64,000 nt of DNA from Actinomycetes bacterium. GTDB taxonomy: Bacteria > Actinomycetota > Acidimicrobiia > Acidimicrobiales > JABEUL01. The notes under the pieces were generated by a model that did not search any database, was not told the DNA's origin, and was given only the letters and a program-made list of their open reading frames with translations. Shown one piece after another: positions 1,001 through 52,384 of the stretch; the stretch's first letter is position 1, and every line of letters begins with the position of its first letter. Both the position numbers and the translations under genes were made by a program. The DNA lies in the NCBI GenBank assembly GCA_021790815.1, contig JAJYFT010000001.1, forward strand, positions 27,777 through 91,776. Direction: 5' to 3'.

Positions 1001-2407
1001 TCAAATTGGAACTGAAAGCCTAATGGAAGTCCCTAATCCTTCTTTCCCAGTCAACTTTAAGGTACCGCCTAAAATATTTGCTCTTTCTCGCATCCCTCGG
1101 AGTCCTAAATGAGATGACCCAGCATCAATAGTAGGGTTAAACCCAATACCATTGTCTTCAATTAACACTGAAATCATCCCTATCTGAAATTCAATTACTA
1201 CAGTTATCTTCGAAGGGCTTGCATGAAGTAGCGAGTTTCTTATGCCCTCCTGACAAATCCTAAAAAGTCCCAATTCTATTTCACGATCCAACCGTTTAAC
1301 TTCACCTGAAATTGACAGCGATATTGGGATATCAAATGCACTTTCTGAATCGACAATTAGGCCCTTTAACGCTGGAATATAGCCTAGTGTTTCTAATGAT
1401 GGAGGTCTAAGACCTTGCGAGAGATTTCGTATACTTCTAGCGGCTGTTAAGAGTTGTTTCGTTACCTCTTCAATATCCCTAGTGACTTCCGCACCTCTAT
1501 CAACGTTAGAACATATCGCTGCAAGATTTTCCTTTATGGTGTCCAACTGTCTTGCAATATGCAAGATTGACTGGAGTGGGTCGTCGTGAAGTTCTCTTGC
1601 AATACGCTGTCTCTCATCCTCTTGAGCAAGCATTAGTGAAGAAGCAAATCCTCGTACATCTCTATACGCCCTTCTCTCCTCAGTTATATCTTGTAGAAGT
1701 ATCTGCATTAGTTGACTCTCTCCTGAGCCAACTGTGCTAACGAGGCACCTAAATTCATACTCTTTCCCATCGACCTTTATTTCCAGGGCATTTGAAGGTG
1801 CTACGTAGCTAAGTTCTAAAGTTGACAGAGACAGTATACTTCTAATATCTTTATCTAGAACCGATTTTCCAAATACACCCCATGCCGCAGGATTTGCATC
1901 TACAACTTTCCCATAACTATCAACCAAAAGAATAGGAGCACGAGTTTGCGCAAATAAATGTCTGAACCTAGATTCGCTTTCAACGTATGAAATTTCTGCC
2001 TGTTCTAGGTAAAGTTTTACCAGTTCTTCTTTTTCAATTCTATGGCCAACAATAATTCCCACAACGTCAACTACTACTAATGCAATGAATTCCATCAAAA
2101 GGCTGTCATGGTGATGTGACAAAAATATGTCTGGAATCCATAAAATAGTTGACCAGAAGGCAGTTGCTGCAGAACCGTGAAGCCCAAAGCGAAGCGCTGC
2201 GTAACCAACTGGAATTAAAAGCAAGAAAATAGGCAGCGTTGCAATAACGTCACCAATTGCTTTGTAATCAATATCAAGAATAAAGTGAACAACTGTAAGA
2301 AGTCCGACGCTTACTTGCACAATCCAAAATCTCGGATCTCTTAAAGGAGGATGAAGAGCTCGTTTTAAGACTTCAGTCCCTTTTAAAAGTGTGCTGTTTT
2401 CAGACAC
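1001..2407 (-). CDS. membrane sensor histidine kinase (TM region + PAS-like + HisKA_3 + HATPase_c)
   Basis: 468 aa with a hydrophobic N-terminal ~130 aa. PAS-like segment SRFRHLFAQTRAPILLVDSYGKVVDANPAAW, H-box ERQRIARELHDDPLQ, and ATPase motifs DNGIGF and GLRGMRERA. The GTG start overlaps the stop of the regulator gene by 1 nt. Confidence 0.85.
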   Translation of the reverse strand: MSENSTLLKGTEVLKRALHPPLRDPRFWIVQVSVGLLTVVHFILDIDYKAIGDVIATLPIFLLLIPVGYAALRFGLHGSAATAFWSTILWIPDIFLSHHHDSLLMEFIALVVVDVVGIIVGHRIEKEELVKLYLEQAEISYVESESRFRHLFAQTRAPILLVDSYGKVVDANPAAWGVFGKSVLDKDIRSILSLSTLELSYVAPSNALEIKVDGKEYEFRCLVSTVGSGESQLMQILLQDITEERRAYRDVRGFASSLMLAQEDERQRIARELHDDPLQSILHIARQLDTIKENLAAICSNVDRGAEVTRDIEEVTKQLLTAARSIRNLSQGLRPPSLETLGYIPALKGLIVDSESAFDIPISLSISGEVKRLDREIELGLFRICQEGIRNSLLHASPSKITVVIEFQIGMISVLIEDNGIGFNPTIDAGSSHLGLRGMRERANILGGTLKLTGKEGLGTSIRLSVPI

Positions 2408-3075
2408 TAGTCAACAATTGTTCCGCTGTCAATCAAGTGATGGTCAAGAGCCCAGATTGCTGCTTCAGTTCTTGATGAAACTCCAAGTTTTGACAGTACA
2501 TTACTTACGTATCCTTCTACGGTTCTTGTTCCAAGACTCAGTTTTGAAGCAATCTGCTTGTTAGATAGTCCTTTTGCTATCGCACAAAGTACGTCAGCCT
2601 CTCGTGAAGTAAGCTCTATGAATGGGTGCTCTTCATGATGCCAACGTCTATTAAGTCTCGCTGTAACTTCCTTATCTAAGACTGTATTGCCATTCGCCAC
2701 CGACACTATTGCGCTACAAAGCTCATTCTTATTTGCTGTCTTTAATAAGTAACCACTTGCCCCTGCATCCAATGCTGCAGTTATATAAGCATAATCATCA
2801 TAAGCACTAACTACTAATGCTTTTGTATCCGCTGAATCCTTTTGAATTGCTTCAATTACTGCCACCCCGCCAGCGCCAGGTAATTGGAGATCAATTAAAG
2901 CTACATTTGGCTTGAGAGCCTTAATGACTTCTATCGCTTCATCAGTTTCACTCGCCTCACCAATCACTTCGAGATTAAGGTCTGTTTCTAGTAGTTTCTT
3001 TACGCCATCTCTTACCAACGCGTGATCTTCAACCACGACAACTGTAGTTCTGATATTGCTGCTGTTTTCAGTCAC
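2407..3075 (-). CDS. response regulator, NarL/LuxR family (REC + HTH)
   Basis: 222 aa. Receiver domain (VVVVEDH, IDLQLPG, LLKT) and C-terminal LuxR-type HTH LTSREADVLCAIAKGLSNKQIASKLSLGTRTVEGYVSNVLSKLG. Confidence 0.9.
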   Translation of the reverse strand: MTENSSNIRTTVVVVEDHALVRDGVKKLLETDLNLEVIGEASETDEAIEVIKALKPNVALIDLQLPGAGGVAVIEAIQKDSADTKALVVSAYDDYAYITAALDAGASGYLLKTANKNELCSAIVSVANGNTVLDKEVTARLNRRWHHEEHPFIELTSREADVLCAIAKGLSNKQIASKLSLGTRTVEGYVSNVLSKLGVSSRTEAAIWALDHHLIDSGTIVD

Positions 3076-3078
3076 CTT

Positions 3079-5844
3079 CTAATATAATTTTACTACCTTT
3101 TCAACACCAACCTTAAATAACCTATCTGATTGGGTCGGTTGCCACTGCATCGGCGTATAAATTAAGTGACCATATCCTTGTATCAAGTGCAGCCACTTTA
3201 CTATTCCAGGTTCTACAAACGTTGCATCTTTCCAATTCGCAAATAAGTGGGGTTCAAAAGAAGCATAGATGATTAGCTGCTTGGGTCTCACTGCTGAAGT
3301 AACCCTTGCCATAAGTTCAAGTTCGCCAAAATCATTGAAAACTCTGACACTGTTAGCATCTTCAATCCCTAATTCGAGAGCGTCTCGGTCATTAATGTGA
3401 ACGACTGGGCGACCACGAGTTGTCTCCAACATAGTCGCATTTGTTGTATTTGTCGCATGGATACTCCACCTTGGATGTCCACCCGTAATTTGAAACTCAA
3501 AATTCCCTCCAATATCAGGTGGTTCTTTATGGCAGGGTAACTCTTCATTGACATCTATAAACCACGGATGATCCATATAAAATTGAGCACGACCCGTAAG
3601 TGTCTCATAAGGAACGTTTTCTTCAGTATGAATCTTATACGCTACAAATGGCTCAGTTAAGCTTATAGACCCTCCTCCAATAAGTGACATTGCCTGAGGA
3701 AGTTTGACAGGAGAAACTAGCCCCTTTTCTCTTAAAGTCTCAAGGTTTGTGCGTGGAGACAAATTTCCAGTCAACACTGAATCTCTTATTACCTCATCCA
3801 GTGCATACTCTTCACCGCCTGAATCTAGATGAGTAATTTGCTTTAACAGGTGTTCATAGGTCCTAACGTTGCCATCAAATCCAACAAACTCCGTAACCCC
3901 CCTTTCACTAGCTACTTTTGCAATTTCTTTTGAAAGTCTGTTGAATAGTTCAAACTCAGATAGGACTCCATCAACTGGATCGAATGCTTTATCGGAAAAC
4001 ATCCTGTCAAAAGCGTGTGAATTCGCAGCATGAAGTTCAACTCTTTCGCCTTCAACTGCAATTGGCAAGAAAATGTCAGAAAACATTGCCGCTGTATTCA
4101 TTCTGAAGTCAACGGTAACAATTAGATCCAACTTAGGCCAAAGGCTATTTAGCAGATTTCTTTGACCTCCACGTGTTCGTCTTAATATATTAGTACCAGC
4201 CTGAATCATGACTTTAGGTGTTACGCCAACTTTAGGTTTATCTAATACCCCCCACTGCTCCAGTGATTCTTCAAACATCTGGGAGAGTGGCTTTGGTGCA
4301 TCACCAGACATATCTTTCTCCCATTCATCTTTAAAGCCACAGTGGTGATAGTAAAATAAAGCAGGTGGAACCCCACCTTGAATTGTTGCTCCTATCCTCA
4401 TGAGTTCAGTAAAAGCTTTGCCTCTCGTCATTGCCTCATCAGAATCATAAAGGGACTCTAAAAACATTTCAACGGTTTCTATTGCCTTATCGCCTGCAGT
4501 AGCGCCGGCACCGTCCTTAAACATTGCAAGTACTTCACCCTCTAAAAGTGCAATGATGTAAGTGTCCAATCCAGTCCCAGGCTTTCCAAAATTTCCAGTG
4601 ATTGCTAATACTAGGTCTAAAGATCTTTCCATTAAATCACCGTGATAGTGTTTGCACGAGCCTAACCCATTAGACACTTTTGTTTTTAGTGAATAGATCC
4701 AGTTTGCAAGAGTTTCAATGATATCTTCGCTCAGTCCACATATTTTGGCTACATTTTCTTTTGTGTACTCCTCAAGTTTTGACCTTAAGATGTTAAAAAC
4801 TGACTCTGTTTGTGTACTGGTTCCATCTTTTAACGTAACTTCCAGTTCACCCGATAGATCTATGTCCGGCGAGGATCCAATTGGATCAAGCTGCCCAAGT
4901 TTAACTTCGCAAAGTGCACCAGCTTTAGACACATAAAACTTGTCCTCTCTTCCGCCTTCTTTTAAGTCAGACTCCCTTAAAAATCTTCTATCTGAAACTT
5001 TTACAAGAAGTGGCATATCGGTTTGTGAAATCAAGAACTCACGATCAATCCTTTTAGTATCAATTAGTTCTTTGGCAATTCCAAGCATTAACGCTGCATC
5101 AGTACCCGGCTTAATTGGAACAAATAAGTCTGCATGCATTGTCGCAGGTGAGTAGTCTGGAGCAATTACAACAACTTTTGCTCCATGGTATCTTGCTTCA
5201 GTTAAATAGTGATAGTAGGGAATGCGTGTAAAAGCAGGATTTCCATTCCATATAATTATTAATTGAGCTCTGAAAGTATCATCGGCCGAACTCCCTCCCA
5301 ATAGGTTTCCAAAAGTTAACCAGTGCCCAGCATGTATGTCACTTACTGATGCATTAGCATCTAGATATATTGAACTAAGTCCCCTCGAAAGTCTTGATCG
5401 AGCCATCGATGCAAGCACACCACACTCGGCACCTGATTCGAGGATGATAGATTCAGGACCTTCTGTCTCAATTGCCTCAACAACATGCTCAGCCACTGTT
5501 CTCAATGCTTCTTCAAGTGAGATCTCTTCCCATTGCGCACTGCCGCGTTCTCCGACCCTCCTCAAGGGTTTTGTGATCCTATCCTTAGAGTCACGCTGCT
5601 TCTGCCAGACACTTCCCTTTTGGCACCCTAACGGATTCATGTCTGGAATTCCATCAAACCCTTGCAAGACACCTGACTGTTCCTCAAATACTGATTTTGA
5701 GTCTCGAGAGTAGAGGCGGTAGGTACAGTTGGCTATACAGTTTCCGCAGTGACTTGACCAAGTTACCTTCTCCCAAGAAAATCGTTGGCGGTAATTATCC
5801 TCAGATGAACATCCGTTAATAGTTAGATTTTCGTATAATGTCAT
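3079..5844 (-). CDS. molybdopterin oxidoreductase catalytic subunit, type II DMSO-reductase family (NarG/EbdA-like), paralog alpha-1, no Tat signal
   Basis: 921 aa. FS0 motif H-CGN-C-IAN-C followed by MNPLGCQKG (H-x3-C-x3-C-xn-C as in NarG-type enzymes). Conserved blocks are shared with the three other paralogs. The N-terminus MTLYENLTINGCSSEDNYRQRF has no twin-arginine motif. No beta or gamma gene is adjacent. Confidence 0.85.
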   Translation of the reverse strand: MTLYENLTINGCSSEDNYRQRFSWEKVTWSSHCGNCIANCTYRLYSRDSKSVFEEQSGVLQGFDGIPDMNPLGCQKGSVWQKQRDSKDRITKPLRRVGERGSAQWEEISLEEALRTVAEHVVEAIETEGPESIILESGAECGVLASMARSRLSRGLSSIYLDANASVSDIHAGHWLTFGNLLGGSSADDTFRAQLIIIWNGNPAFTRIPYYHYLTEARYHGAKVVVIAPDYSPATMHADLFVPIKPGTDAALMLGIAKELIDTKRIDREFLISQTDMPLLVKVSDRRFLRESDLKEGGREDKFYVSKAGALCEVKLGQLDPIGSSPDIDLSGELEVTLKDGTSTQTESVFNILRSKLEEYTKENVAKICGLSEDIIETLANWIYSLKTKVSNGLGSCKHYHGDLMERSLDLVLAITGNFGKPGTGLDTYIIALLEGEVLAMFKDGAGATAGDKAIETVEMFLESLYDSDEAMTRGKAFTELMRIGATIQGGVPPALFYYHHCGFKDEWEKDMSGDAPKPLSQMFEESLEQWGVLDKPKVGVTPKVMIQAGTNILRRTRGGQRNLLNSLWPKLDLIVTVDFRMNTAAMFSDIFLPIAVEGERVELHAANSHAFDRMFSDKAFDPVDGVLSEFELFNRLSKEIAKVASERGVTEFVGFDGNVRTYEHLLKQITHLDSGGEEYALDEVIRDSVLTGNLSPRTNLETLREKGLVSPVKLPQAMSLIGGGSISLTEPFVAYKIHTEENVPYETLTGRAQFYMDHPWFIDVNEELPCHKEPPDIGGNFEFQITGGHPRWSIHATNTTNATMLETTRGRPVVHINDRDALELGIEDANSVRVFNDFGELELMARVTSAVRPKQLIIYASFEPHLFANWKDATFVEPGIVKWLHLIQGYGHLIYTPMQWQPTQSDRLFKVGVEKVVKLY

Positions 5845-5846
5845 GC

Positions 5847-6440
5847 TTATCTCCTGTATTTTTTATAAACATAGGATCCTATAATTACAAGTAATACTAC
5901 ACCAGTCACTTTCAAAGTTTTCCTTGAAATTAAATTTTGATTCCTAAACTCTCTAATACTGTTTTCACTGTCGATCTCACTTATTTGAGTGAGTTCATAG
6001 AACGATTTTGGAACTGATAGTACAAAGCCAGTTCCTAAAACGGTTATTAAATTTTTTGACTTTGAACTACCAAGACTTAAGCTTATATTTTTTTCACGGA
6101 ACGCTTTAATTGGTGAACTTCTGCCACTTACAACTTTTGCCATGTTTAACCACTCACCTTCCATGACAGGTGACCGATCTATTATTGGTTCGGGAACATC
6201 AACAGCATCTCTTACTGTTACCAAACCCCTATCAAATGTAAGTACAACTGCATAGTCGCGATCTTTCGCCTTTAAAGTGACGTCACCCTTAATTAAGCGT
6301 GTTGCGAAACTTCTAGACCTAAAACCACCTAAGTTTTCTACAAGTAACCCCGCGACCATATTAGCCATACCAGAAGCATTTTCTTCATCCTGAAGTATTA
6401 CCCTGACGTTACTTTCACTGGTCACACTTCGCGCCACCAA
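5847..6440 (-). CDS. SCP2-like lipid-binding domain protein with C-terminal membrane anchor
   Basis: 197 aa. The central region has an SCP2-like pattern (VTLKAKDRDYAVVLTFDRGLVTV ... EWLNMAKVVSGRSSPIKAF). The C-terminus VTGVVLLVIIGSYVYKKYRR is a TM helix. An alternative GTG start at 6425 would give a GTGA overlap with the upstream stop. Confidence 0.45.
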   Translation of the reverse strand: MVARSVTSESNVRVILQDEENASGMANMVAGLLVENLGGFRSRSFATRLIKGDVTLKAKDRDYAVVLTFDRGLVTVRDAVDVPEPIIDRSPVMEGEWLNMAKVVSGRSSPIKAFREKNISLSLGSSKSKNLITVLGTGFVLSVPKSFYELTQISEIDSENSIREFRNQNLISRKTLKVTGVVLLVIIGSYVYKKYRR

Positions 6441-8038
6441 CTTTCAATCCCAATATCCTCCGCAATAATTGAAAGAGCATTATATGCTGGTGCAAACGTA
6501 ATAAATCCATGGGGGTGTTGAGTGGAACCAGCCATATAGAGACTTTCAATAGGTGTTCTGTACTGACCAAGTTCCGGTGTAGGCCTTACATCAAGCATAT
6601 TCTCCAACGTAATTTCACCCATCATCCAGTCGCCTTTAACCATGTTTGGTAGTTTTTCAGTTATATCATGTGGGGAGTAAGTCGCAAACTCTATGATCGA
6701 GTCTTCGACATTCGGAGCAAACTTATTCCAAGTTCTTATGCACGATTCACCATAGTGACGAGATTCAACGTTCCACTCTGCTGAGCCACCATTTGAGTTA
6801 TTCCCAGTTTTCACCTCATAAGGTGCAAACTGACGCAACAGACCAGTATAGAATCCTTCAGGAGCATCCGTTGGATCGTATAATGAGTTGACAGCTGCAT
6901 TTGGATGAGGAGTGGGAAGCCTACCCTCTTTTATAAGTCGCCAGTCATTATTCAAGTCACCAAGTGAGCCGTAGCCAAGATTTACTACCCAAGCTCTGTT
7001 TACATCTGGATTAAATGACGAAGCAACGTAATTTGGCAACTCTTTCATCGCTAGATGTACTGAAAAGAGACTGTACTCTTGATGTTTTACATTTTTTACT
7101 TTCTCAACAAATTCATTTCCCAGAATTTCATTTTTCTCATTTTCATTTAAGAACTCTAAAAATGTCTGTTCTACTGAAACTGTTGAAGCAACTAACTTAC
7201 GCGCAACGATCTCATTGCCATCACTTAGCCGAACTCCTACTGCTTTTTTATTGTCAACTACAATTCCTTGCACTTCTGCATCAGTTATTAGGACTCCACC
7301 ATGAAATGCAAAATCACGCCAAAGGCCATGTGCTAAGCGGTGTGAACCTCCTACTGAAAGGTGCCAATTATTAATCTTCCCAACAAGTAGCGGAAACCCT
7401 ATTGCAAGACCGACTTTATCGTTACTGTATCCACATATAGCACCATGGAAAGCTAAGTGAGCTTTGACTTTGTCACTTTCAAAGTGTTCATTTAGGAAGT
7501 CATTTATTGTCTCTCTTCTTAGCTTAACCGATAAGAATTCAGACCTCTTATTAACACCAAAAACGCTTAATGCCTTTGTTAAATCTTTAACAGACATCGG
7601 CGGTTCAAACATTAAAGTACTTAAAAGAAGGTTTACATAACCGTGTGCTTCGGTAAAGAGCTTCTTGAATGTCTCCGCATCCTTCTTTGAAAATTGTGAT
7701 ATGGATTCGACCGTTTTATCAATATCTTCATAGACAACAAGTGCGCTACCATCCTCATATATGCTAGCCATCTGCACTTCAGGTCTCACATATTTTACGC
7801 CATGGCCTCTCAGGTCAAGATCTCCAACCGGAGGACTTAGGTCGACAAAAGTATGGTAGTTGGCATGGACATTGTGCAAGAACCCAGGAAGAGTTAGCTC
7901 TTCAGTAGTTAAGCCACCACCTTCTTCATGTCTGCGTTCTAAGATAACAACTTCAAGGCCCGATCTTTGTAGATAACAGCCAAGTGCAAGACCATTATGA
8001 CCTGCTCCAATTATGATTACATCAGCTTCTTTTAACAT
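6422..8038 (-). CDS. FAD-dependent oxidoreductase, phytoene desaturase (CrtI/CrtO)-like family, paralog 4 of 4
   Basis: 538 aa. N-terminal DVIIIGAGHNGLALGCYLQRSGLEVVILERRHEEGGG dinucleotide-binding motif and C-terminal MAGSTQHPHG motif. The gene abuts the next gene with no gap. Confidence 0.8.
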   Translation of the reverse strand: MLKEADVIIIGAGHNGLALGCYLQRSGLEVVILERRHEEGGGLTTEELTLPGFLHNVHANYHTFVDLSPPVGDLDLRGHGVKYVRPEVQMASIYEDGSALVVYEDIDKTVESISQFSKKDAETFKKLFTEAHGYVNLLLSTLMFEPPMSVKDLTKALSVFGVNKRSEFLSVKLRRETINDFLNEHFESDKVKAHLAFHGAICGYSNDKVGLAIGFPLLVGKINNWHLSVGGSHRLAHGLWRDFAFHGGVLITDAEVQGIVVDNKKAVGVRLSDGNEIVARKLVASTVSVEQTFLEFLNENEKNEILGNEFVEKVKNVKHQEYSLFSVHLAMKELPNYVASSFNPDVNRAWVVNLGYGSLGDLNNDWRLIKEGRLPTPHPNAAVNSLYDPTDAPEGFYTGLLRQFAPYEVKTGNNSNGGSAEWNVESRHYGESCIRTWNKFAPNVEDSIIEFATYSPHDITEKLPNMVKGDWMMGEITLENMLDVRPTPELGQYRTPIESLYMAGSTQHPHGFITFAPAYNALSIIAEDIGIESWWREV

Positions 8039-8503
8039 CTAACTATCAGCCTTTCGCACGTAGGGAGGTTTCCCAAGCGGCCACTCAGTTTCCACATTTT
8101 TCGTGTATGCAAGTAGCAAAGTTTGTACCTGATCAGCTTGACGAAGCAGGAACCTCATATCACCTTTAACCTTGATATCACCACCTAAAGCTGCATCAAT
8201 TGGGTCAAGTGTACCAGCGGCTATTGAGTCAAATACTTCAGCATTTCCTCTAAAACGATAATTTAGCTTTACGTCAAGTGACTTTCCTAGTTCAATCTCT
8301 TCATACCACATACACTTCCCATCCTCAATTGAAACTAAAAAGTGTCTTTCAGATCCTTCATCAACATATGGTGAGACTCCATCCCCAACAATCTCAATTA
8401 CGAGAATCCACTTCCCTTTCGGTACTTCTTTTAAGGTAGAAGCACTTTTATTGATAGCATCTTTGACGCTTTCGTACCACTCATCTGTATAAATTTTTGA
8501 CAA
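8039..8503 (-). CDS. SCP2 sterol/lipid-carrier domain protein
   Basis: 154 aa. Classic SCP2 C-terminal pattern NAEVFDSIAAGTLDPIDAALGGDIKVKGDMRFLLR. Confidence 0.75.
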   Translation of the reverse strand: MSKIYTDEWYESVKDAINKSASTLKEVPKGKWILVIEIVGDGVSPYVDEGSERHFLVSIEDGKCMWYEEIELGKSLDVKLNYRFRGNAEVFDSIAAGTLDPIDAALGGDIKVKGDMRFLLRQADQVQTLLLAYTKNVETEWPLGKPPYVRKADS

Positions 8504-8516
8504 TTAACACTCCTTA

Positions 8517-10130
8517 TTAATACCCTCGACTAGCCACAACGGGGGTGTCGAGTGAAAAATCGTTAGCAATTACCTTAAAAGAATTGTATCCACATGCGGC
8601 ATGAACACCACCTCCTGGATAAGCTGACGGTCCACAGAGGTAAAGCCCTTCTACTTCAGTTCTGTATGAAGATGCTTCAGGGAAAGGTCTGTTTGGCCCC
8701 ATCTGATCTGGAGAAAACTCACCATTTGAAAAATCTCCTTCCATCATCATGTTCTTTCTCTCCATCTGATCGGGAGTATAGACTCGTTCTGCAATAATAT
8801 TGTCAGACGTCATGTTTGGTGCAAATCTTTGCCACACATCAATAAACTTCTTATTATAGGTTCTTCTAACTTCTTCCCATTCTTCTTTTGATAGCGCACT
8901 TTTTGGGGGCATAAAGTACCACCCTGTTGCACTGTGCCGTGATGGAGGTGCTTGCGACTGATCCCAAATGCTGTTTACCCAGGTTCCTGCTGCTGGTTTC
9001 GGAAGGTGTCCGTTATAGGCATCCCTAATATACTGAGCCATGTCCAACTCATTTTCAAACCCAACTAAGGTGTAAAAGCACTTATTAATCTCCTCGTCAT
9101 ACTTAGCTGACTTGTAGTTTGGCGCTTCATATAGGCACATAGTCAAAGTACCTAATACATGACTTGGTCCGTATCTAAATGCCTTTGCTCGCTTAACCCA
9201 CTTAGGTGACAAGTTATCTTGCCCTACCATATCTAAAAGAGTCTGTCTTAAGTCCGCATTCGAAGCTACTAGTTTTGAAGCATTGAAAGTATCTCCATTT
9301 GCTACCTTTACCCCAGTAGCTCTACCATTTTCTACAATAATCTCTTTTACTTCAGAGCTTTCAACTAAATCAACGCCAGCACTGTAACAAGCTTGAGTCA
9401 TTGCTTTTGCCAATGAATGGGTACCACCTTTACACATCTTCCAATTACCCATCGTCCACATTATGAATGTCAAGAACGCAGCTCCTGTGCAAGCTGTATC
9501 AACAGGAAAACCCCATTCGACTGTAGAGCGGTAGAGAAGTGCCCTTAGTTCAGTGGATTCAAAAAGTTCGTCTATCACTACTTTTGGTGTCTTCATAACA
9601 AAATCAGCAGTTATTCCTAGATCACCAAGCAAAGCATCGATAAGCTGACCCTGCAGTTGCGTATCTCCTTCAAGTGGCGGAGAGTACAAATTTACTGCCA
9701 AAAGGTTTTCCATGCTCATTACTCGTTTTTTCAATTCAACATACATATCTGCATCACTTTTTGAATATACAGATATAGATTTATGAGTTCGATCCAACAA
9801 ATCAGGACGATGAATAATTACTGGTGGCCTTCCATCTTCAAAAGCAATACCGGCCTGAGCTTCAGGCATAATTGTCCTAAGGCCAATTCTTTCTAGCTCA
9901 AAGTCTTTAAACATCGGCATAATGTCAAAAAACTCCATGTATTGAGCGTGCATGTTATGCCTGTACCCTGGCAAAAGTGGCTCTTCGGTATTTACTCCAC
10001 CACCTTCTTCATGCCGTCTTTCTAAAATCGCTGTTTTAAGTCCGGCTCTCGCCAAATAAGCACCCAAACAGAGACCGTTGTGACCTGCGCCAATTACAAT
10101 AGCGTCATAATTAAATGTTTCAGGCATCAA
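8517..10130 (-). CDS. FAD-dependent oxidoreductase, phytoene desaturase (CrtI/CrtO)-like family, paralog 3 of 4
   Basis: 537 aa. DAIVIGAGHNGLCLGAYLARAGLKTAILERRHEEGGG and C-terminal LCGPSAYPGGGVHAACGYN. Confidence 0.8.
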   Translation of the reverse strand: MMPETFNYDAIVIGAGHNGLCLGAYLARAGLKTAILERRHEEGGGVNTEEPLLPGYRHNMHAQYMEFFDIMPMFKDFELERIGLRTIMPEAQAGIAFEDGRPPVIIHRPDLLDRTHKSISVYSKSDADMYVELKKRVMSMENLLAVNLYSPPLEGDTQLQGQLIDALLGDLGITADFVMKTPKVVIDELFESTELRALLYRSTVEWGFPVDTACTGAAFLTFIMWTMGNWKMCKGGTHSLAKAMTQACYSAGVDLVESSEVKEIIVENGRATGVKVANGDTFNASKLVASNADLRQTLLDMVGQDNLSPKWVKRAKAFRYGPSHVLGTLTMCLYEAPNYKSAKYDEEINKCFYTLVGFENELDMAQYIRDAYNGHLPKPAAGTWVNSIWDQSQAPPSRHSATGWYFMPPKSALSKEEWEEVRRTYNKKFIDVWQRFAPNMTSDNIIAERVYTPDQMERKNMMMEGDFSNGEFSPDQMGPNRPFPEASSYRTEVEGLYLCGPSAYPGGGVHAACGYNSFKVIANDFSLDTPVVASRGY

Positions 10131-10473
10131 CTACCTCTTTTTGAGGCTCAGTCATTGCACGGAGACGCGGAACACGTTTTTCCACTACTTGAACTTCTGG
10201 TTCTAGTTCAACTGATTTATTCTTCAAATGGAAAAACCACCTAAAACCCAGCTTCCAGACTTTAGGTCTCATAGCGACCTTTAACATTCCAGGTATATCA
10301 TCTTGTGACACTCTTATAGAGAACTCCCATGTTACAGGGCGTTGAACTGTACCAGATAGTACCAGCTCGCCATTTTCAGATTTAATTTCACAATCTTTTA
10401 GATCTATTACCAGCTCTCTTTTACCGAGCCCTCTCGACTTAAGCTTCAAGATAAGCCTCCTTGTACTTCTCAA
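10120..10473 (-). CDS. small hypothetical protein embedded in the CrtI-like operon
   Basis: 117 aa ORF that overlaps both neighbours (35 nt upstream, 11 nt downstream). I recognise no motif. Support comes only from position inside a tightly packed operon. Confidence 0.4.
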
Positions 10474-12103
10474 TATACTTAGGTGTTTTCCACCATTTAT
10501 CTATCTCAAAATCTTCAGCAACTGTATTAGCGGCTATATACCCAGGGCCACCAATTATTAACCCACCCGGATAACTAGATGCACCACACAGATAAAGACC
10601 ATCGATTGGACTTCTTCCTGCTATAACTGAATCATGAGGGCGGAACACACCCATTTGAAGTGGGTTATAATCGCCGTGCTTTATTGAACCACCAACCATA
10701 GTTTTTATCCTTGTTTCGATATCTAGTGGAGACTCGTGAGATGATGCCACAATTGAATCTTTCGTAATGTTTGGTGCATACTCACTCCACTTTGAAATTA
10801 GCCGATCTCTTAGGTTTGCCCCAACTTCTTCATAGTTAATTTTGGTTGAAAGTGGAACATGACTCTGCAAGAATGCAACTTCATGCCCTGGAATTCTTGG
10901 AAGAGTTGGGTCATAACGAGTTTCAGTGGTTGCGTGTCCTCCTACTTCATCACTATCAGAAATCTTGCCACTCAAAACAGCATCAAAATGCGTTGCCAAC
11001 TCGTTATAAGTTTCAAAACCTAAAATAGTCATTAGCGCATCATTAACCCACGGATCTTCAGAAATATATCTCGGGGCTTCTTTAAGTGCAAGTGAGACAG
11101 TGAAAAAAGACCACTGATCCCATTCCCAATTTTCAGCTGTTTGAACTAACTCACTTGGAACTAAGTCCCTATCGATAAGCTTTCCAAAAGTCTGAGGTGG
11201 TGGAAGACTAGAAATTATTGCCGATGCATTAATAACTCTTCCATCGTCTAAGATGACTCTTTTTGCTTGGTTGTTCTCTACGTCTATTTTTACGACTTCA
11301 GCATTATCAAGGATTATCCCTCCTGCCTGGTGAATCGCCCGTGAAAGTGAACCCGCTAATTTATGGGAGCCTCCATAACACTGTGCTTTATTTAGGTTTC
11401 TAGTTACAAGCAGTGGGACCAAAAATCCGAGACCACTATCTCTTGGATTCAAGCCCCACATGGTAGACATGTAGAGAAGTGCCATTCTTAACTTATCGTT
11501 TTCAAAGTTTTCTTCAATGATTTCCATTGGTGACATTTCTGTAAGACGAAGTGCTTCTTGACCCGATTCACCCCGATTAAGTGCTTCAATCATATCAATT
11601 GGCGACATTGGTGGCACATACGTCCCTGGAGCTAGTACATCATCAACAATTTTCTGCCACTGTCTCATTAGGTGGCCAAACCTTCTTGCATCTTTATCAG
11701 AAAACAGCGCTATTGAGTCTTTTGAGTCTTCAATCTGCTGACAAAGTACAAGTGAACTACCATCTTTAAATACAGCTGCAGTTTGGATATTTGGTTTTAT
11801 AAAAGTTAAACCGTGAACTCCTAAATCAAAATCCTGGAAAAGCGGCATATAGTCAACCATTAGATGATAAATGGCATGAGGGTTGGTATAAAAACCTGGG
11901 AATAACGTCTCTTCAGTTGCTAACCCCCCTCCAATTTCTTGTCTTCTCTCAATGACGACAGTCTTTAAGCCCGCTTTTGCCAAATATGCTGCCGTAATTA
12001 ATCCATTAGGACCCGCACCAATTACTGCCACATCAAAGCTTGATTCTTGTGGAAACTGTGCGAGTAAATTTACATCTGGAGTTGCTTCGTAACTTTGCCT
12101 CAT
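10439..12103 (-). CDS. FAD-dependent oxidoreductase, phytoene desaturase (CrtI/CrtO)-like family, paralog 2 of 4
   Basis: The track ORF extends to 12157. The ATG at 12103..12101 shares one base with the upstream TGA (sequence CTGATG), giving [10 protein letters not shown].... Rossmann motif [37 protein letters not shown] and C-terminal [10 protein letters not shown]. Confidence 0.8.
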
Positions 12104-13806
12104 CAGTTTTGACTCCCTTTCTTTGTATCGGCCACATAGTATGGTGATGGGTACCACCAGTTTCCTGGACTTGCTATTTTGTCTTCTATCAAAACGTGCA
12201 TCAAATTATATGGAACAGCCATAAGACAAAGCCCCCCCGGGTGAGAAGTATGGTTACAAAGATAGAGGTTTTCTATCGGAGTCTTATATCGACCAAGCTC
12301 TTTGATCGGTCTCGATCCAAACCATTGATCTTCAGACTGCCTGGCTCCGTACCAGTTTCCACCTGACATTCCAGCGTTCCTAAACTCCGAGTCATAAGGT
12401 GTGTTCAAAAATACCTCAACTATATTATTGCTATTCATATTTGGGGCGAGTGACTCAAGAAGGTCGAGCGCAGCCTTGGTTATTTCATCTTTATGGCGAT
12501 TTATGCCTTCTGGACCTTCAACATCGTATTGAGGAGGAGGAACCTCCAAGTAAATTGGAGATAAGACGTGATATCCCTCTGGACAACGAGTCCTATCGTA
12601 TACATCATGTTGACAGATCATCATGGTGAGATGCTCTTTAGTAAGAACTGGCGCCTTTTTCTTTGAGTAAGCGTCTTTAGTTTGAGTATGAAAGAAGTCA
12701 ATCGAATCAACCGGAGCAGCAACACAAGATGGGTAAACCTCTTCTGGAAACGCATCCTCTCTGCCGTGATATTTGGGAAGTTCTCTGCATAATACTGACA
12801 ACACGTACAAGCTTCCACCTTTAAGTGAAACGTCTCGTACCTTTTGAACAAATGAAGCATCAAGATGAGTTTGGCCGATTAACTTCAAGAATGTCTGCTT
12901 GACGTCAACTGCCGAGATAACTGCTTTGTCAGCCCAAATTGTTTTTTCTGGGTAGGAAGCTTTATCGTCAAGTTTTACTCCAACCGCCCGACCATCTTTA
13001 ACAAGGATCTCTCCAACCGATGCGTTAGTAATAACGCGAGCTCCATTTGCAATAGCTGATCTTATAATTGCGTGTGCATAGGAGTGCATTCCACCTCTTG
13101 GTGACCCTGAACTATACCCTACCAACAGCGTCCCACCGAGTGAAGGAAGCAACATCCCGTCCCAACCAGGGTGAGCTCCGCAGTACCATGCAGCAAATGC
13201 TTGAAAGGTGCGAAGCGGTTCCCAGGGAACGAACTCATCGAGGAAATCCAAAAAGCTCATTTCGACGAGGCGCTCACTCCAAAGACCTGGAAGCTGCTTT
13301 CTGAACTCTTGCCACATTGGAGCATCCTTAGGCTCAATTTCAACCGAATCTGGAAGTGGTGGTGTCCAAAATATTGACCTCAAGAGATCCCGTAAACCAT
13401 CATCTCCCATCGATCCTAAAAATACCTCTTCGGCCCCAACTGCATCTTGTCCCGTGTAATAGCTCACACTTTTCTGTGCTACTTCACGATTCCAACGACC
13501 TCCTAAGTTGGCCGCTACCCCGTCAGTAGTAACCAAACCAGCCATCGACTGATAGTAAACCATTCTGAATCCGTACTTAGCTAGATCCAACTGCTCAAAC
13601 CCTGGCGCGGCACCTCCATAAAGGTACGTAGCATGTGGATCAATCCTGAAACCAGGACGTGGTTCGGTATTTTCTTGACCTCCACCACATTCAGGTCTTT
13701 CTTCAAGTATGCAGACTGAGAGACCGCACTTAGCCAAATAGGCAGCTATCGTTGTGCCGTTATGACCTCCCCCAACTACAACAATGTCAAAGTGCTCTTC
13801 TCGCAC
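12103..13806 (-). CDS. FAD-dependent oxidoreductase, phytoene desaturase (CrtI/CrtO)-like family, paralog 1 of 4 (first gene of operon)
   Basis: 567 aa. GTG start preceded by [44 protein letters not shown] and C-terminal NHTSHPGG. Confidence 0.8.
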
Positions 13807-13920
13807 TTAAACCTCCTTACCTACACGATTTAAAATGAAACATGTCACGCCGCCAAAATCGACTGCTAAACTTTGTTTACAAAACCTCAATAAAAGTAAA
13901 CTCTTTTGAGGTAAAATGTG

Positions 13921-13940
13921 ATAGGGACTAAAGTCCCTAT
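13921..13940. promoter_or_regulatory. DosR/DevR-type box (perfect 14-bp core), candidate operator of the 13806..1001 operon
   Basis: ATAGGGACTAAAGTCCCTAT has perfect 9-bp inverted arms around AA. The core GGGACTAAAGTCCC equals the M. tuberculosis Dos box core GGGACTWWAGTCCC. It lies 115 nt upstream of the GTG at 13806, in the region divergent from a TetR gene. Confidence 0.7.
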
Positions 13941-14227: not shown

Positions 14228-14863
14228 ATGTCAAATAATCCTGCTAGTAAAAAACTTGTTCTTCCTGCAAATGAAATAGAACTTCAATTAAAAATTGAAT
14301 CGCTTACCCAGGTAAATAAGAGCTGGTCGAAAATGTTGAACGCAGCACTAATCCTATTTTCTGAATACGGCATTGCCCAGACCACAATGGAACAAATCGC
14401 TGAAAGAGCTGACGTATCTAGAATGTGGCTTTACAAGACATTCGGGAACAAAAGCGGTTTGGTTAGAGCAGTTGTAGACATGGAAATGAACAACTTTTTC
14501 TTTAATCTCAACTCCCACCTCGCACAGATCCCGAATGGAACAGAACTAATACTTGAAGCTTTTGCGCTAACAGTCAAATTCTTAAGAGGCCATGCATTGC
14601 TTCAGAGATTACTGGACTCTGAACCTGAAACTCTGCTGCCAATGCTTACGATCGACGCCAAAGAGATGGTTGCTAGAGGAATTGAACTTATGACGCCTTG
14701 GTTAGTGGTACGCGGAGACGTAAAGAAAGAAAAAGCACAATTAGTAGCCGAGGTTCTGGTAAGACTACTAACCACAACTGTAATCATGCCAAAAGGTGAA
14801 ATAGATTTAGATGATACTAATGAAATCAAGAATTGGCTTCGAAACTCAATAAACTTTAGCTAA
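14228..14863 (+). CDS. TetR/AcrR family transcriptional regulator
   Basis: 211 aa. N-terminal HTH ILFSEYGIAQTTMEQIAERADVSRMWLYKTFGNKSGLV. Confidence 0.85.
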   Translation: MSNNPASKKLVLPANEIELQLKIESLTQVNKSWSKMLNAALILFSEYGIAQTTMEQIAERADVSRMWLYKTFGNKSGLVRAVVDMEMNNFFFNLNSHLAQIPNGTELILEAFALTVKFLRGHALLQRLLDSEPETLLPMLTIDAKEMVARGIELMTPWLVVRGDVKKEKAQLVAEVLVRLLTTTVIMPKGEIDLDDTNEIKNWLRNSINFS

Positions 14864-21685: not shown

Positions 21686-23025
21686 TGTGCCATTACCTCC
21701 TCAAGTTGGTATGAAGAATTTTCATAGTTGCTCAATACGTCTCCTACCGCGTCAAAGGCAAGAATTTCAAGAGTACCGTCTTCGATAAGTAAGCATCTTG
21801 CATCTCTAAAGAGTTTTTCCGCAATTGACTCTCTGCTTAACCCGAATGCTCCAAGAACCTGAATTGCGTCATGAGCGACTTCAAATGCAATCCTCTTCGC
21901 ATATATTTGAGCAGTTCTTGTGTGTCTTGGAGAAGCTCCAGTAGATCCACCTTGGAATCCGAGCAAAGCGTGATTTCTTACGTGATAGTTTGCTTTTCTA
22001 GCATATGCTCGAGCAGTTTCAATCTTTTCAAACATAGAGTATAGGGTTAATTTAATGTTTTTGTGGTCCGAAATGGGCCCCCCACCTTGCATTCTTGTCC
22101 TCGAGTGATTCAGCGCTTCTTCAAATGCTGCCCGTGCCAACCCAACAGCAACATTAGCTATCGATGCACTAGTAACACATAGTAGTTGATCACCAAAAAC
22201 AGGATAAATAGGACTTGGCGCCACAAGGATATTTTCAGCTGGGACGAAAACCTCATCAAAGAATATTTCACCTTGTGGATCGTCTTTTACTCCAAGCATG
22301 TCTTGAACTTTTCCTTTTCTAACCCCCTCGCTGCTTAGATCAACAATTGCAAAAAAGCTATGATGGAGATCTCCATCTGCGCCTGCTTGAGCATGGACTG
22401 CTGCATGAGTTGCAACTGGCCCTGAGCTAACCCAAGCCGATTTTTGACCAGTTAATATCCATCCACTATTTGCCTGTGTCGCAATTAACTGACCTTTAGG
22501 GGAGTACTTTTCTTTTTGACCTCTTACAGTTAAGTAGTCGCTGCCATGATCTGGTTCTGTTATAGCCCAACAACCGTGATATGCGCCAACTTCGTCGTCA
22601 ATCCATGGTTTCAAATACTTTTCCTTTAGGTCATCATTACCAAAGTACGCAATCGTCAAAAAGGGCATCATGTCTACCAAAAAACTAGTGGCCAGACCTA
22701 ATGAACCCCACCCTAACTCCTCTAACACGACGGCAAGTGTAATGGGAGTTACCTCACCTTCTCCCCCTCCATACTCTGGAGGAAGAAAGAGCTTATGATA
22801 ACCCAGCGATTTTAATCGGTTCATTACTGCATAATATGGTGACCCTTCGAGAATTCTCTCTCCTGGTGCCATCCGGTCTAGCTGGACCGATGCAGGTCTT
22901 ACAACCTCAAAAGCAATTTTATGTACTTGCTCTTTTATAAATTGATCTTCATCGCTAAGATCATCTAGATCCAGAAACGTGACTCCGAGGTCATGCCCGC
23001 TGTGATCCATAGCAATACTATACAA
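21679..23025 (-). CDS. acyl-CoA dehydrogenase family protein
   Basis: 448 aa ACAD-like throughout (CWAITEPDHGSD, LIEDGTLEILA). The track start is a TTG. ATG at 23010 (MDHSGHDLG...) lies 6 nt after TATAGT with no SD, suggesting a leaderless start. EDGT replaces the usual YEGT. Confidence 0.8.
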   Translation of the reverse strand: MYSIAMDHSGHDLGVTFLDLDDLSDEDQFIKEQVHKIAFEVVRPASVQLDRMAPGERILEGSPYYAVMNRLKSLGYHKLFLPPEYGGGEGEVTPITLAVVLEELGWGSLGLATSFLVDMMPFLTIAYFGNDDLKEKYLKPWIDDEVGAYHGCWAITEPDHGSDYLTVRGQKEKYSPKGQLIATQANSGWILTGQKSAWVSSGPVATHAAVHAQAGADGDLHHSFFAIVDLSSEGVRKGKVQDMLGVKDDPQGEIFFDEVFVPAENILVAPSPIYPVFGDQLLCVTSASIANVAVGLARAAFEEALNHSRTRMQGGGPISDHKNIKLTLYSMFEKIETARAYARKANYHVRNHALLGFQGGSTGASPRHTRTAQIYAKRIAFEVAHDAIQVLGAFGLSRESIAEKLFRDARCLLIEDGTLEILAFDAVGDVLSNYENSSYQLEEVMAQW

Positions 23026-23042: not shown

Positions 23043-23062
23043 GTAGGGTCTAAAGTCCCAAT
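23043..23062. promoter_or_regulatory. DosR-type box (1 core mismatch) upstream of the ACAD/ADC/NMO operon
   Basis: GTAGGGTCTAAAGTCCCAAT. The core GGGTCTAAAGTCCC differs from GGGACTWWAGTCCC at one position. It lies 20-40 nt upstream of a TATAGT -10-like hexamer. Confidence 0.6.
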
Positions 23063-24708: not shown

Positions 24709-24728
24709 AAAGGGACTTAAGACACTTT
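24709..24728. promoter_or_regulatory. weaker DosR-like box in the SQR / Ehr divergent region
   Basis: AAAGGGACTTAAGACACTTT has a perfect left half-site GGGACT plus TA spacer. The right half AGACAC differs from AGTCCC at 2 positions. It lies 52 nt upstream of the SQR start. Confidence 0.35.
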
Positions 24729-24950: not shown

Positions 24951-24984
24951 TATATATGACAAGATGATAAGATTGTCATATATG
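24951..24984. promoter_or_regulatory. 11-bp inverted repeat ending on a start codon of the Ehr operon
   Basis: ATATATGACAA (24952..24962) / TTGTCATATAT (24973..24983) with a 10-nt spacer. It covers the first annotated ATG (24964) and ends at the second ATG (24982). Confidence 0.4.
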
Positions 24985-25458
24985 AAAATAGTCAGCATGC
25001 TGAATAATATAATATCTAAGCCTGTTTCAAAAGGGTTTTCTAAAGGTAGGAACTCTTCTTCATCGCAATCCCCAAATAGATCTGTTGCATTTCGCCATGT
25101 CGATGTAGGTTCTTGCAATGCTTGCGAAATAGAAATTTCATCCGCATTTGGTCCAGTCTATGATGCATCGCGCTTTGGTATGTCTCTAGTTGCAAGTCCT
25201 AGACACGCTGATGGGCTGCTTGTGACAGGAGTAGTTACGCAAAACATGTACGGCCCTTTGATGAAAACATATGAAGCAACTCCAAAGCCCAAAATTATTA
25301 TTGCATGCGGTGACTGCGCTATAAACGGTGGAATATTTAAAGATAGCTACGGGGTCAAAGGTATTTTAAGTGATGTACTTGAAGTTAGCTATTCAATCCC
25401 GGGATGTCCACCACACCCACAACAAATAGTCGAAACTTTTAGAAATATTAATAGATAG
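24964..25458 (+). CDS. NuoB/HycG-like small subunit (4Fe-4S) of an Ehr/group-4-hydrogenase-like complex
   Basis: 164 aa. Cluster ligands are kept: GSCNACEIE, ACGDCA, GCPPHP. The start may be ATG 24982 or later. Confidence 0.85.
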   Translation: MIRLSYMKIVSMLNNIISKPVSKGFSKGRNSSSSQSPNRSVAFRHVDVGSCNACEIEISSAFGPVYDASRFGMSLVASPRHADGLLVTGVVTQNMYGPLMKTYEATPKPKIIIACGDCAINGGIFKDSYGVKGILSDVLEVSYSIPGCPPHPQQIVETFRNINR

Positions 25459-25460
25459 AA

Positions 25461-27461: not shown

Positions 27462-27481
27462 TATGACGAGAAAAGAGTAGC

Positions 27482-28426
27482 ATGACCGTCTTTAGTTTTA
27501 CAACATCTTTACTTCAATTAATTTTTATTCTCGCTTGCGCACCGCTACTAAACGGCATAATGTTAAAGCTCAAAGCACGTGCGGAACGAAGAGTTGGTCC
27601 GCCAATCTTTCAAACCTTCTTTGACCTAGCTAAGCTTTTCAAAAAAGAAAGACTCCGTTCACAAAATGCTAGTATCTTTTCAGCCCTTGCTCCTGTAGTG
27701 CTCATTTCATCAACAGTCGTAGTAATCATTGTTTCGCCAATACTTTCAACTCAAGAACTCTTTAAAACTTCAGGGGATCTCTTCGCAATAGTTTTCATAC
27801 TATTAGTTGGATCTCTAATGATCGCTCTATTAGGACTTGATCCGGGAACTCCTTTTGGTGGCTTAGGCTCAAGTCGCGCTATGACTATCTCTTCTCTTTC
27901 TGAACCGGCACTACTCGTCTCAATTGTAGCTATTTCAATTCAAGCAAAATCGACTAACCTTTCAACTATCGTTTCTGCCAACCTTTCCCATCCCATTTGG
28001 CTGGTTAGCCCACCGCATCTTTTAGCGATTTTCGCTCTTTTGATTGTAATCTTTGCTGAAGCAGGACGAATACCTGTTGACAATCCTGCGACCCACTTAG
28101 AACTGACCATGATTTACGAAGCCATGATTCTTGAAAGCTCTGGGGAAGACTTGGCATTAATTAAGCTTGGGGAATTTATGAGATTTACTCTTCTCTTATT
28201 GATTGTTGCAAACCTCTTCTTCCCATTTGGCATTGATACCCAAGCAAACTGGATTCAGCTAATTTTAAGTAGCGGAATTAGCCTTATAAAATTAACAATA
28301 CTAGGAAGCTTAGTAACGCTACTCGAGGTGACTCAAGCAAAGCTCCGCCTGTTTCGTGTACCTGAACTTCTTGCTGGAGCATTCGTACTAGCAGTTCTCG
28401 CTGTCATCTCGGAGTTCGTGGCCTAA
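27482..28426 (+). CDS. hycD: NuoH/HycD-like membrane subunit
   Basis: 314 aa, 8 TM-like segments. AEAGRIPVDNPATHLEL resembles the NuoH/HycD loop (E..R.PFD..E.E.EL). Size and position match mycobacterial hycD as I recall it. Confidence 0.75.
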   Translation: MTVFSFTTSLLQLIFILACAPLLNGIMLKLKARAERRVGPPIFQTFFDLAKLFKKERLRSQNASIFSALAPVVLISSTVVVIIVSPILSTQELFKTSGDLFAIVFILLVGSLMIALLGLDPGTPFGGLGSSRAMTISSLSEPALLVSIVAISIQAKSTNLSTIVSANLSHPIWLVSPPHLLAIFALLIVIFAEAGRIPVDNPATHLELTMIYEAMILESSGEDLALIKLGEFMRFTLLLLIVANLFFPFGIDTQANWIQLILSSGISLIKLTILGSLVTLLEVTQAKLRLFRVPELLAGAFVLAVLAVISEFVA

Positions 28427-28427
28427 A

Positions 28428-30580: not shown

Positions 30581-30587
30581 TCTGCAA

Positions 30588-37771: not shown

Positions 37772-37870
37772 TTACGTCGCCAATTCTTCAGAATTACAAT
37801 TCTTACTATTTATCAACACCGAGTTGCACTTCTTTCCAGCGAAAACTCCCGTGTAGTAAAAGTCCGTCAT
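37772..37870 (-). CDS. candidate 32-aa Cys-containing peptide upstream of the radical SAM gene
   Basis: Below the ORF-track cutoff. ATG 37870..37868 overlaps the upstream TGA (ATGA). It encodes MTDFYYTGVFAGKKCNSVLINSKNCNSEELAT with a repeated K-x-C-N-S motif. TAA lies 11 nt before the rSAM ATG, with GGTGAG in between. A chance ORF is not excluded. Confidence 0.4.
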   Translation of the reverse strand: MTDFYYTGVFAGKKCNSVLINSKNCNSEELAT

Positions 37871-47508: not shown

Positions 47509-47519
47509 ATTCTCTCCTT

Positions 47520-48632: not shown

Positions 48633-48653
48633 TTGTTTATTGCTCCTTTTGAC

Positions 48654-52086: not shown

Positions 52087-52223
52087 ATGGCCTCCCGATT
52101 TAAACAGATTTAATTACTTATACACAATGAGACATATATTGCTACATTGTCTCACTTTATGTAACAAAACAAAGGTTTGTTACTGTAGGTAACGTTTATT
52201 TTGCTATAAATTAGACTAAACGT

Positions 52224-52243
52224 ATAGGGTCTAAAGTCCCTAT
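52224..52243. promoter_or_regulatory. DosR-type box (1 core mismatch) upstream of the alpha-4 operon
   Basis: ATAGGGTCTAAAGTCCCTAT lies 138 nt upstream of the GTG at 52086. Its flanks are identical to the 13921 box. Confidence 0.65.
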
Positions 52244-52343: not shown

Positions 52344-52384
52344 ATAGGCGCTAAAGGACTATCTATTTGGACTAAAGCCCTAAA
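52344..52384. promoter_or_regulatory. two degenerate DosR-like boxes in tandem
   Basis: ATAGGCGCTAAAGGACTAT (52344..52362) and ATTTGGACTAAAGCCCTAAA (52365..52384). Both keep the CTAAAG centre and partial arms. Confidence 0.35.

Follow-up and report, generated by a model that had tools for sequence, protein, structure and literature searches.

What reads a palindrome that heads three separate operons, and what would it switch on? The question is raised by 64,000 nucleotides of DNA (hereafter the window; contig JAJYFT010000001.1 of assembly GCA_021790815.1, positions 27,777 to 91,776) from an uncultured, metagenome-assembled, low-GC genome of the Acidimicrobiales (Actinomycetota). The window has a GC content of about 41%, is 91% coding, and carries a palindromic box ahead of each of three gene arrays: S1 (13921..13940), S2 (23043..23062), and S3 (52224..52243). 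The boxes resemble the sites of the mycobacterial regulator DosR (DevR), and we judge it probable that a dimer of a DosR/DevR/OsdR-type regulator, encoded outside the window, binds them and activates the three operons.

Three palindromes and their promoters

Box S1 (ATAGGGACTAAAGTCCCTAT; ATAGGGACTTTAGTCCCTAT when read towards its operon) is a perfect 9-2-9 palindrome of 20 bp. Its 14-bp core, GGGACTAAAGTCCC, returns with one mismatch (GGGTCTAAAGTCCC) at 23046-23059 and 52227-52240, in boxes S2 (ATTGGGACTTTAGACCCTAC towards the operon) and S3 (ATAGGGACTTTAGACCCTAT). The initial annotation had claimed both the palindrome and the two near-identical copies; a direct check of the sequence confirmed them, and the copies are all intergenic and far beyond chance. 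By chance, 64 kb searched on both strands should hold about 0.02 matches to a given 14-mer when one mismatch is allowed, and the probability of three or more is about 1.4e-6. With up to three mismatches, the core had 14 matches (3.46 expected), a number reached in 0 of 100 shuffles. A weight matrix built solely from boxes of other genomes, and compared with 100 shuffles of the window, ranked S1, S3, and S2 at the top (27.1, 25.3, and 23.2 bits; highest shuffle, 21.0), and its top four matches were all intergenic.

The degenerate copies that had also been annotated were not individually significant. The site at 24709..24728, intergenic between a Pyr_redox_2 gene (minus strand) and an Mbh/complex-I-like operon (plus strand), is marginal at 15.0 bits (95th percentile of shuffle maxima, 16.7); 52365-52384 scored 9.9 bits, under the median shuffle maximum (12.1), and 52344-52363 fell outside the top 20 matrix matches in the window. 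A copy within coding sequence (2364-2383) scored 10.2 bits.

All three boxes match GGGACTTNNGNCCCT perfectly, the stringent DosR consensus of Mycobacterium smegmatis (PMC6448022), which bears out their description as DosR-type palindromes. In promoter-facing orientation, this consensus was perfect in 12 of 19 boxes (relatives included) and had one mismatch in the other 7. Within each half-site, the bases that DosR reads are G4G5G6A7C8T9 (PMC3177182). The Streptomyces OsdR consensus, AGGGCCGATCGGCCCT, is similar and comes from sites upstream of osdR itself.

For promoter geometry, each box was oriented towards its gene and 58 offsets to a hexamer were tested across 15 promoters. An nAnnnT hexamer (mostly TAnnnT) started 21 nt past the box, leaving a 20-nt gap, in 13 of the 15; the other offsets gave at most 5, and the T at hexamer position 6 was present at the 20-nt gap in every promoter. 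No -35 consensus was found at the box promoters. With the predicted -10 hexamer at -12 to -7, the box extends from roughly -52 to -33, its centre falling near -42.5; this is the geometry of class II activation and argues against a repressor operator. At hspX, the DosR box is centred at -43.5, and DosR touches sigma region 4 and the alpha subunits of RNA polymerase (PMC13486717). TANNNT is the mycobacterial SigA -10 motif; about 24% of mycobacterial transcripts are leaderless, and leaderless mRNAs are common in Actinobacteria (PMC6448022). A sigma-70 consensus scan of the three intergenic regions gave nothing useful because actinobacterial promoters lack the -35 consensus, and the offset test was used instead.

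The predicted -10 element of the S1 promoter is TTTACT (13895..13900, minus strand), 20 nt past the box, with T1 and T6 invariant in alignment A1; the predicted start near 13888 leaves about 82 nt of leader before the GTG at 13806, and this leader includes an AAGGAGG ribosome-binding site. At S2, the predicted element is TATAGT (23017..23022, minus strand); because the ATG at 23010 comes 6 nt after the hexamer and lacks a Shine-Dalgarno sequence, the S2 mRNA is predicted to be leaderless, starting at 23010. The leaderless prediction also holds for the alpha-subunit gene of locus L074 and the MerR genes of L011/L012 (loci fetched from other genomes bear L numbers throughout). The S3 promoter has a predicted CAAAAT (52198..52203, minus strand) and a predicted start near 52191.

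The predicted 5' leader of the S1 operon (13820-13890, minus strand) itself holds conserved blocks: GTAAACaaaGTTTAG in the window, and TTTGTAAAC, common to the window and L005. L005 also keeps the TetR-family gene found in the window, and L006 to L009 share another block of 50 nt. These blocks could be a second operator (perhaps for TetR) or a leader element.

The box is conserved in relatives. It lies upstream of orthologues of FAD1 (the first gene of the S1 operon) with 0 to 1 core mismatches in L005/L023, L006, L007, L008, L009, and L014, and in degenerate form in L011, L012, and L046; the box-bearing orthologues have 70-83% amino acid identity and come from Acidimicrobiales genomes of 40-69% GC. 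In L014, one box stands between divergent acyl-CoA dehydrogenase and FAD1 operons. A perfect box precedes the acyl-CoA dehydrogenase gene in L069/L070, where a weaker one precedes a radical SAM gene, and L074 has boxes upstream of an acetoacetate-decarboxylase-family/radical SAM operon and of an alpha-subunit gene. The orthologue in L011 of the first S3 gene (alpha4) has a box followed by TATATT at the standard spacing. Strong matches in relatives were all intergenic, and among the loci fetched from other phyla, no boxes were found. The invariant columns of the box alignment are GGACT..G.CCCT, and the promoter-distal half-site is more conserved than the proximal one. Together with the fixed -10 spacing, this conservation bears out the claim of the initial annotation that the palindromes link the three operons into a regulon.

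Box promoters also occur at other genes. L014 has tandem boxes (898-939; starts at 898 and 920, 22 bp apart) upstream of genes for a Fer4_5 membrane protein and a GltD-like flavoprotein; in L082, these two genes are divergent from a regulator/kinase pair. Their counterpart in the window's own genome (60717-63963, L086) has an Rrf2 neighbour and no box upstream. In L011 (13557-13612) and L012 (13555-13612), a box promoter stands ahead of a leaderless (GTG) MerR-family gene inserted in the flavoprotein cluster, which suggests a further regulatory tier in that lineage.

Candidate readers of the boxes

The window encodes one NarL-type response regulator (2407-3075, minus strand), the last-but-one gene of the S1 operon. 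Its best solved-structure matches are VraR/LiaR (E = 4e-40), followed by DevR (E = 2.6e-35), and its NCBIfam matches are all under their cut-offs. Aligned to 3C3W, it reads RTVEGYVSN where DosR reads KTVKNYVSR, placing R/E/G at K179/K182/N183; the initial annotation had cautioned about this helix, rightly. In DosR, these three residues read GGGACT (PMC13486717), and K182G by itself abolishes DevR binding, as cited there (reference 36 of PMC13486717). The RTVEGY helix is identical in the orthologues P0001-P0016 of the local regulator. We rejected the local regulator as a DosR orthologue on account of the R/E/G replacements at base-contacting positions.

Public metagenomes were scanned for TAGGGACTTTAGWCCCTA, an exact 18-bp palindrome; at least 101 stretches were returned, of which 80 (L089-L168; 27-70% GC) were examined, and no contig of the window's lineage was among the stretches returned. 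On these 80 contigs, 9 of the 11 GerE-type DNA-binding domains within 1 kb of TAGGGACTTTAGWCCCTA carry T[VI]KNY and none carries RTVEGY, so the K-N-Y helix and this box travel together well beyond mycobacteria. The pairing spans at least four unrelated lineages (29-56% GC). The palindrome often directly adjoins a NarL-type T[VI]KNY regulator (L136, 2423-2440; L125, 1207-1224; L098, 1933-1950), and contigs of about 30% GC have kinase, regulator, and box in order, then degenerate tandem copies (including ATGACTTTTTTACCTAT).

Because regulators adjacent to the box elsewhere almost always carry T[VI]KNY and neither the window nor the sampled relatives have such a helix, the reader is most likely an unlinked DosR/OsdR-type regulator encoded outside the window, as the initial annotation had proposed as one option. 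In the mechanism that we propose, S1 to S3 would be promoter-proximal sites for a dimer of a NarL/LuxR-family regulator of DosR type (GerE-type DNA-binding domain) with a T-V-K-N-Y helix. Each box would stand in for a -35 element, ending 20 nt ahead of a TANNNT-type -10, and class II activation by the bound dimer would bring RNA polymerase to the promoter, as structurally shown for DosR at hspX (PMC13486717). The boxes would thereby turn on some 25 genes in three long minus-strand operons, whose predicted product is an O2-independent oxidation pathway of ethylbenzene/steroid-C25-dehydrogenase-like molybdoenzymes, CrtI-like flavoproteins, and acyl-CoA dehydrogenase. The operon's own regulator/kinase pair would be a member of the regulon, not the binder.

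Several points weigh against an unlinked DosR-type reader. In the 1.2 Mb scanned, neither the window nor the fetched Acidimicrobiales loci encode a T[VI]KN[YH] helix (the sole match lay in a Dehalococcoidia locus), and a DosR-type regulator gene in this lineage is a prediction, with none seen in the sampled loci. The local regulator is the only NarL-family regulator near the boxes, and in three lineages it lies within a box-controlled operon, like classic autoregulation. The targets here are catabolic (molybdoenzyme, flavoprotein, and acyl-CoA dehydrogenase genes), unlike those of DosR, which are dormancy, universal-stress-protein, and hspX genes. Every DevR promoter of M. tuberculosis has at least two tandem boxes, the secondary sites being very poorly conserved (PMC3177182), whereas the promoters of the window appear to be single-box; no secondary box above background was found at 16 promoters, a weak test given the poor conservation of the M. 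tuberculosis secondary sites.

Arg/Glu pairs can read G:C pairs, as in CRP, and the regulator at 2407-3075 might itself act on the boxes by class II activation, with positive autoregulation through S1 and phosphorylation by the adjacent membrane kinase (four transmembrane segments and a PAS domain) on a lipophilic substrate or a membrane redox signal. It is the sole GerE-type regulator of the window, sits inside the operon headed by the perfect box, and counts DevR among its best structural matches. It also lies within an operon of the FAD1/S1 type in L008/L009, its orthologues are found within 11 kb of boxes in four lineages, and the orthologous regulator-kinase operon of L069/L070 is preceded by two degenerate boxes and a TATCAT 1 nt off the standard spacing. 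We nonetheless consider this arrangement, the main alternative, unlikely. The base-contacting positions hold R, E, and G (in DevR, K182G is enough to abolish binding), regulators adjacent to the box elsewhere carry T[VI]KNY and never RTVEGY, and the pair lies outside the FAD1 operon in the closest sequenced relative. In five high-GC lineages, orthologues whose helix is identical lack any box within 10 kb, their own promoters included; their conserved neighbour is an NrfD/Fe-S/cupredoxin cluster. A factor of another family, such as CRP/FNR, with the likeness to DosR boxes coincidental, is less probable still: such factors bind 5-4-5 palindromes near -41.5, and GGGAC-N4-GTCCC has that layout and shares the class II position, but here the T that follows GGGAC and the one that follows CCC are conserved as well, which matches the DosR consensus. 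Domain scans found no CRP/FNR-type gene in the window, and the association across lineages is with GerE-type regulators.

Steroid regulons of several operons can be under TetR-type control through palindromes, as with KstR, and box S1 lies in the intergenic region between FAD1 and a divergent TetR-family gene (14228..14863, plus strand), whose product could be a repressor acting in trans on the three operons from these operators. A 50%-identical TetR is likewise divergent from FAD1 beside the box in L005/L023, the only loci in which the gene is conserved next to FAD1. The box, however, is fixed on the -35 side of a -10 hexamer that lacks a -35 element, which is the geometry of an activator, rather than over the -10 or the start; S1 is 288 bp from the TetR start codon (ATG) and has the sequence of the DosR consensus, elsewhere the box is found together with T[VI]KNY regulators, and the TetR homologue is absent from the box-bearing L006, L007, L011, L012, L014, L069, and L074. 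The adjacent TetR, which the initial annotation had named as a possible binder, is thus very improbable in that role. Least credible of all is that the palindromes are RNA hairpins, terminators, or a dispersed repeat. The S1 hairpin does fold at -11.3 kcal/mol (z = -4.1) and S3 was flagged as terminator-like on the plus strand; the other copies, though, fold no better than shuffles (z, -1.1 to +0.1), and variants break arm complementarity. The predicted transcripts start downstream of the boxes, and the strong copies are all intergenic and ahead of operons. Since Rfam gave no match in the window, only S1 folds strongly, compensating changes are lacking, and the boxes have unrelated flanks, the element is neither an RNA structure nor a mobile repeat.

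The unlinked DosR-type regulator remains our preferred reader, and the regulator/kinase pair of the window may have other business. The pair (window, 221-2407; L001, 12292-17890; also L071, L076, L080, and L084) is syntenic across Acidimicrobiales with a cluster encoding two small proteins, an Fe-S (Fer4_11) protein, an NrfD-type membrane protein, and a cupredoxin-like protein. This NrfD cluster may be the real target of the pair or an electron outlet of the molybdoenzymes. No palindrome common to the surroundings of the local-regulator orthologues was found in seven lineages. In L082 (9900-9960), the perfect palindromes ACTTACGTAAGT and GGTACGTAAGTAATACC lie between an RTVEGY-helix regulator and the Fer4_5 operon and may be that regulator's own operator; ACTTACGTAAGT was rejected as a shared site, as it is absent from the window and the other loci and so is specific to its lineage.

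The operons and their enzymes

Three arrays were delimited by gene spacing, each headed by a box. The S1 operon (13806 to 1001, minus strand) has 10 genes with gaps of at most 13 nt, encoding four CrtI/CrtO-like flavoproteins of 60 kDa, an SCP2 protein, two small proteins, the ethylbenzene-dehydrogenase-like alpha1 (3079-5844, minus strand), the NarL-type regulator, and a kinase with four transmembrane segments, PAS, and HisKA_3 (1001-2407, minus strand). The S2 operon (23010 to 19382, minus strand) encodes an acyl-CoA dehydrogenase, an acetoacetate-decarboxylase-family protein, and an NMO-family oxidoreductase. The S3 array (52086 to 33703, minus strand; 12 genes, largest gap 106 nt), which we infer from gene spacing to be a single transcript, runs from alpha4 through gamma (EB_dh), beta (Fe-S), a delta chaperone, alpha3, four further proteins (two without a family match, one CopD-like, and one AMP-binding-like), a permease-PfkB fusion, and a radical SAM/SPASM protein to alpha2. 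The fusion (37867-40302, 811 amino acids) joins a cytosine/purine-type permease to a PfkB-family kinase.

Pfam and NCBIfam scans of the window found four type II DMSO-reductase alpha subunits of 916-938 amino acids, related to ethylbenzene dehydrogenase, along with a single beta, a single gamma (EB_dh), and a single delta subunit. The scans also found the four 60-kDa flavoproteins and the SCP2, acyl-CoA dehydrogenase, acetoacetate-decarboxylase-family, NMO-family, and radical SAM/SPASM proteins, with two TetR, one ArsR, and one NarL-type regulator/kinase pair as regulators. The alpha subunits carry Molybdopterin and Molydop_binding domains, and these, with the Fe-S beta, the EB_dh gamma, and a NarJ-like delta chaperone, are the components of the type II DMSO-reductase family. 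Alpha4 falls short of the cut-offs of both TIGR03479 (792 bits; cut-off, 985) and EbdA (681 bits; cut-off, 2000) and is therefore a family relative, not an equivalog. The enzymes of the operons are relatives of water-dependent (O2-independent) hydroxylases. The initial annotation had called them molybdenum hydroxylase-like; the kinship to oxygen-independent hydroxylases stands, although they are of the type II DMSO-reductase family and not of the xanthine-oxidase type.

Four alpha paralogues (3079-5844, 33703-36474, 44088-46838, and 49270-52086) face one beta/gamma/delta set (46852-49259), which recalls the shared small subunits of the steroid C25 dehydrogenase isoenzymes. The 60-kDa flavoproteins are paired (FAD1 with FAD2, FAD3 with FAD4; 6422-13806) and adjoin molybdenum hydroxylase genes. 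The Sterolibacterium route has a two-subunit delta-24 steroid desaturase and a C26 hydroxylase (PMC11061730); the flavoprotein pairs and molybdoenzymes of the window resemble it in outline.

Against representative genomes, FAD1 was 63-83% identical to proteins of Acidimicrobiales/Actinomycetes metagenome-assembled genomes (MAGs), and only 40-51% to those of Dehalococcoidia and others. Contigs of two assemblies, GCA_027338785.1 and GCA_027458815.1, also encode a protein identical to the local regulator. Divergent from the marginal box at 24709 is an Mbh/Mrp/complex-I-like membrane module of six genes (24964-32120, plus strand; Oxidored_q6, two Proton_antipo_M, NADHdh, and a fused 30-kDa/49-kDa subunit), whose fused subunit has a weak NiFe-hydrogenase signature.

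Signal, significance, and known systems

The only sensor kinase of the window combines four membrane helices with one PAS domain, in which there is a single cysteine, and with HisKA_3 and HATPase domains. Inspection of its domains and sequence found no GAF domain and no cysteine cluster, and sensing of the DosS/DosT or NreB kind by this kinase was therefore rejected. Control of the regulon by low oxygen or redox state is physiologically plausible, and would follow only if the predicted DosR-type regulator pairs with a haem-GAF kinase, as in other Actinobacteria. More tentatively, a DosR/OsdR-type low-oxygen/redox switch may have been rewired from dormancy to catabolism in an uncultured clade of Acidimicrobiales, one regulator directly turning on, once oxygen is exhausted, water-dependent molybdenum hydroxylases and desaturases that replace oxygenases on sterol- or isoprenoid-like substrates, with a downstream two-component tier; we hold this wider picture to be possible and rather doubtful.

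Regulation of ethylbenzene/steroid-C25-dehydrogenase-like pathways has so far been known mainly from Proteobacteria, and the box, 20 nt, and TANNNT together give a promoter model for such pathways in uncultured Gram-positive Actinomycetota. By this model, these genomes should encode a DosR-type regulator that has yet to be seen. The model also offers a way to search MAGs for more genes of the pathway, and carries the DosR/OsdR box into a third actinobacterial class, where the regulon is very different. Should oxygen limitation be the signal, a single switch would decide between oxygenase-dependent and oxygenase-free catabolism. In the library of papers searched, none mentions both DosR and Acidimicrobiia, and one mentions ethylbenzene dehydrogenase and Acidimicrobiia, once each.

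On present comparison, the regulon appears to be a known kind of system, class II activation by a NarL/DosR-family regulator, in a new lineage with new targets. In Aromatoleum, two-component systems (Tcs/Tcr and TdiSR) control ethylbenzene dehydrogenase and related anaerobic hydrocarbon operons, and there too a PAS kinase and a NarL/FixJ-type regulator are encoded beside catabolic genes of the ethylbenzene dehydrogenase type. That system, however, is proteobacterial, with FixJ-like helices and substrate sensing, whereas the window has a DosR-type box and a local regulator that is probably not the reader. The KstR/KstR2 sterol regulons of Actinobacteria share with the window one palindrome before several lipid- or sterol-like catabolic operons and a TetR gene beside one of them; KstR operators are 14-bp repressor sites of the TnnAACnnGTTnnA type, and differ in this from the boxes, whose sequence and -42.5 geometry point to a NarL-family activator.

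OsdR/OsdK of Streptomyces coelicolor is closer, OsdR being the DosR orthologue of another actinobacterial class with sites of the form GGG(C/A)C-N4-G(G/T)CCC, and high-GC relatives of the window also have a GGCCC right half. The OsdR regulon consists of stress and development genes, and in the loci fetched here no box-preceded DosR-type gene was found. The mycobacterial system comprises DosR and DosS/DosT, none of which is in view here, the local regulator lacking K179/K182/N183. With the Dev boxes of M. tuberculosis and M. smegmatis, the window shares the GGGACT half-site, the consensus, the 20-bp palindrome, and the host phylum Actinomycetota, and in both cases the promoter-proximal box lies about 43 bp upstream of the start (here predicted), over the -35 region.

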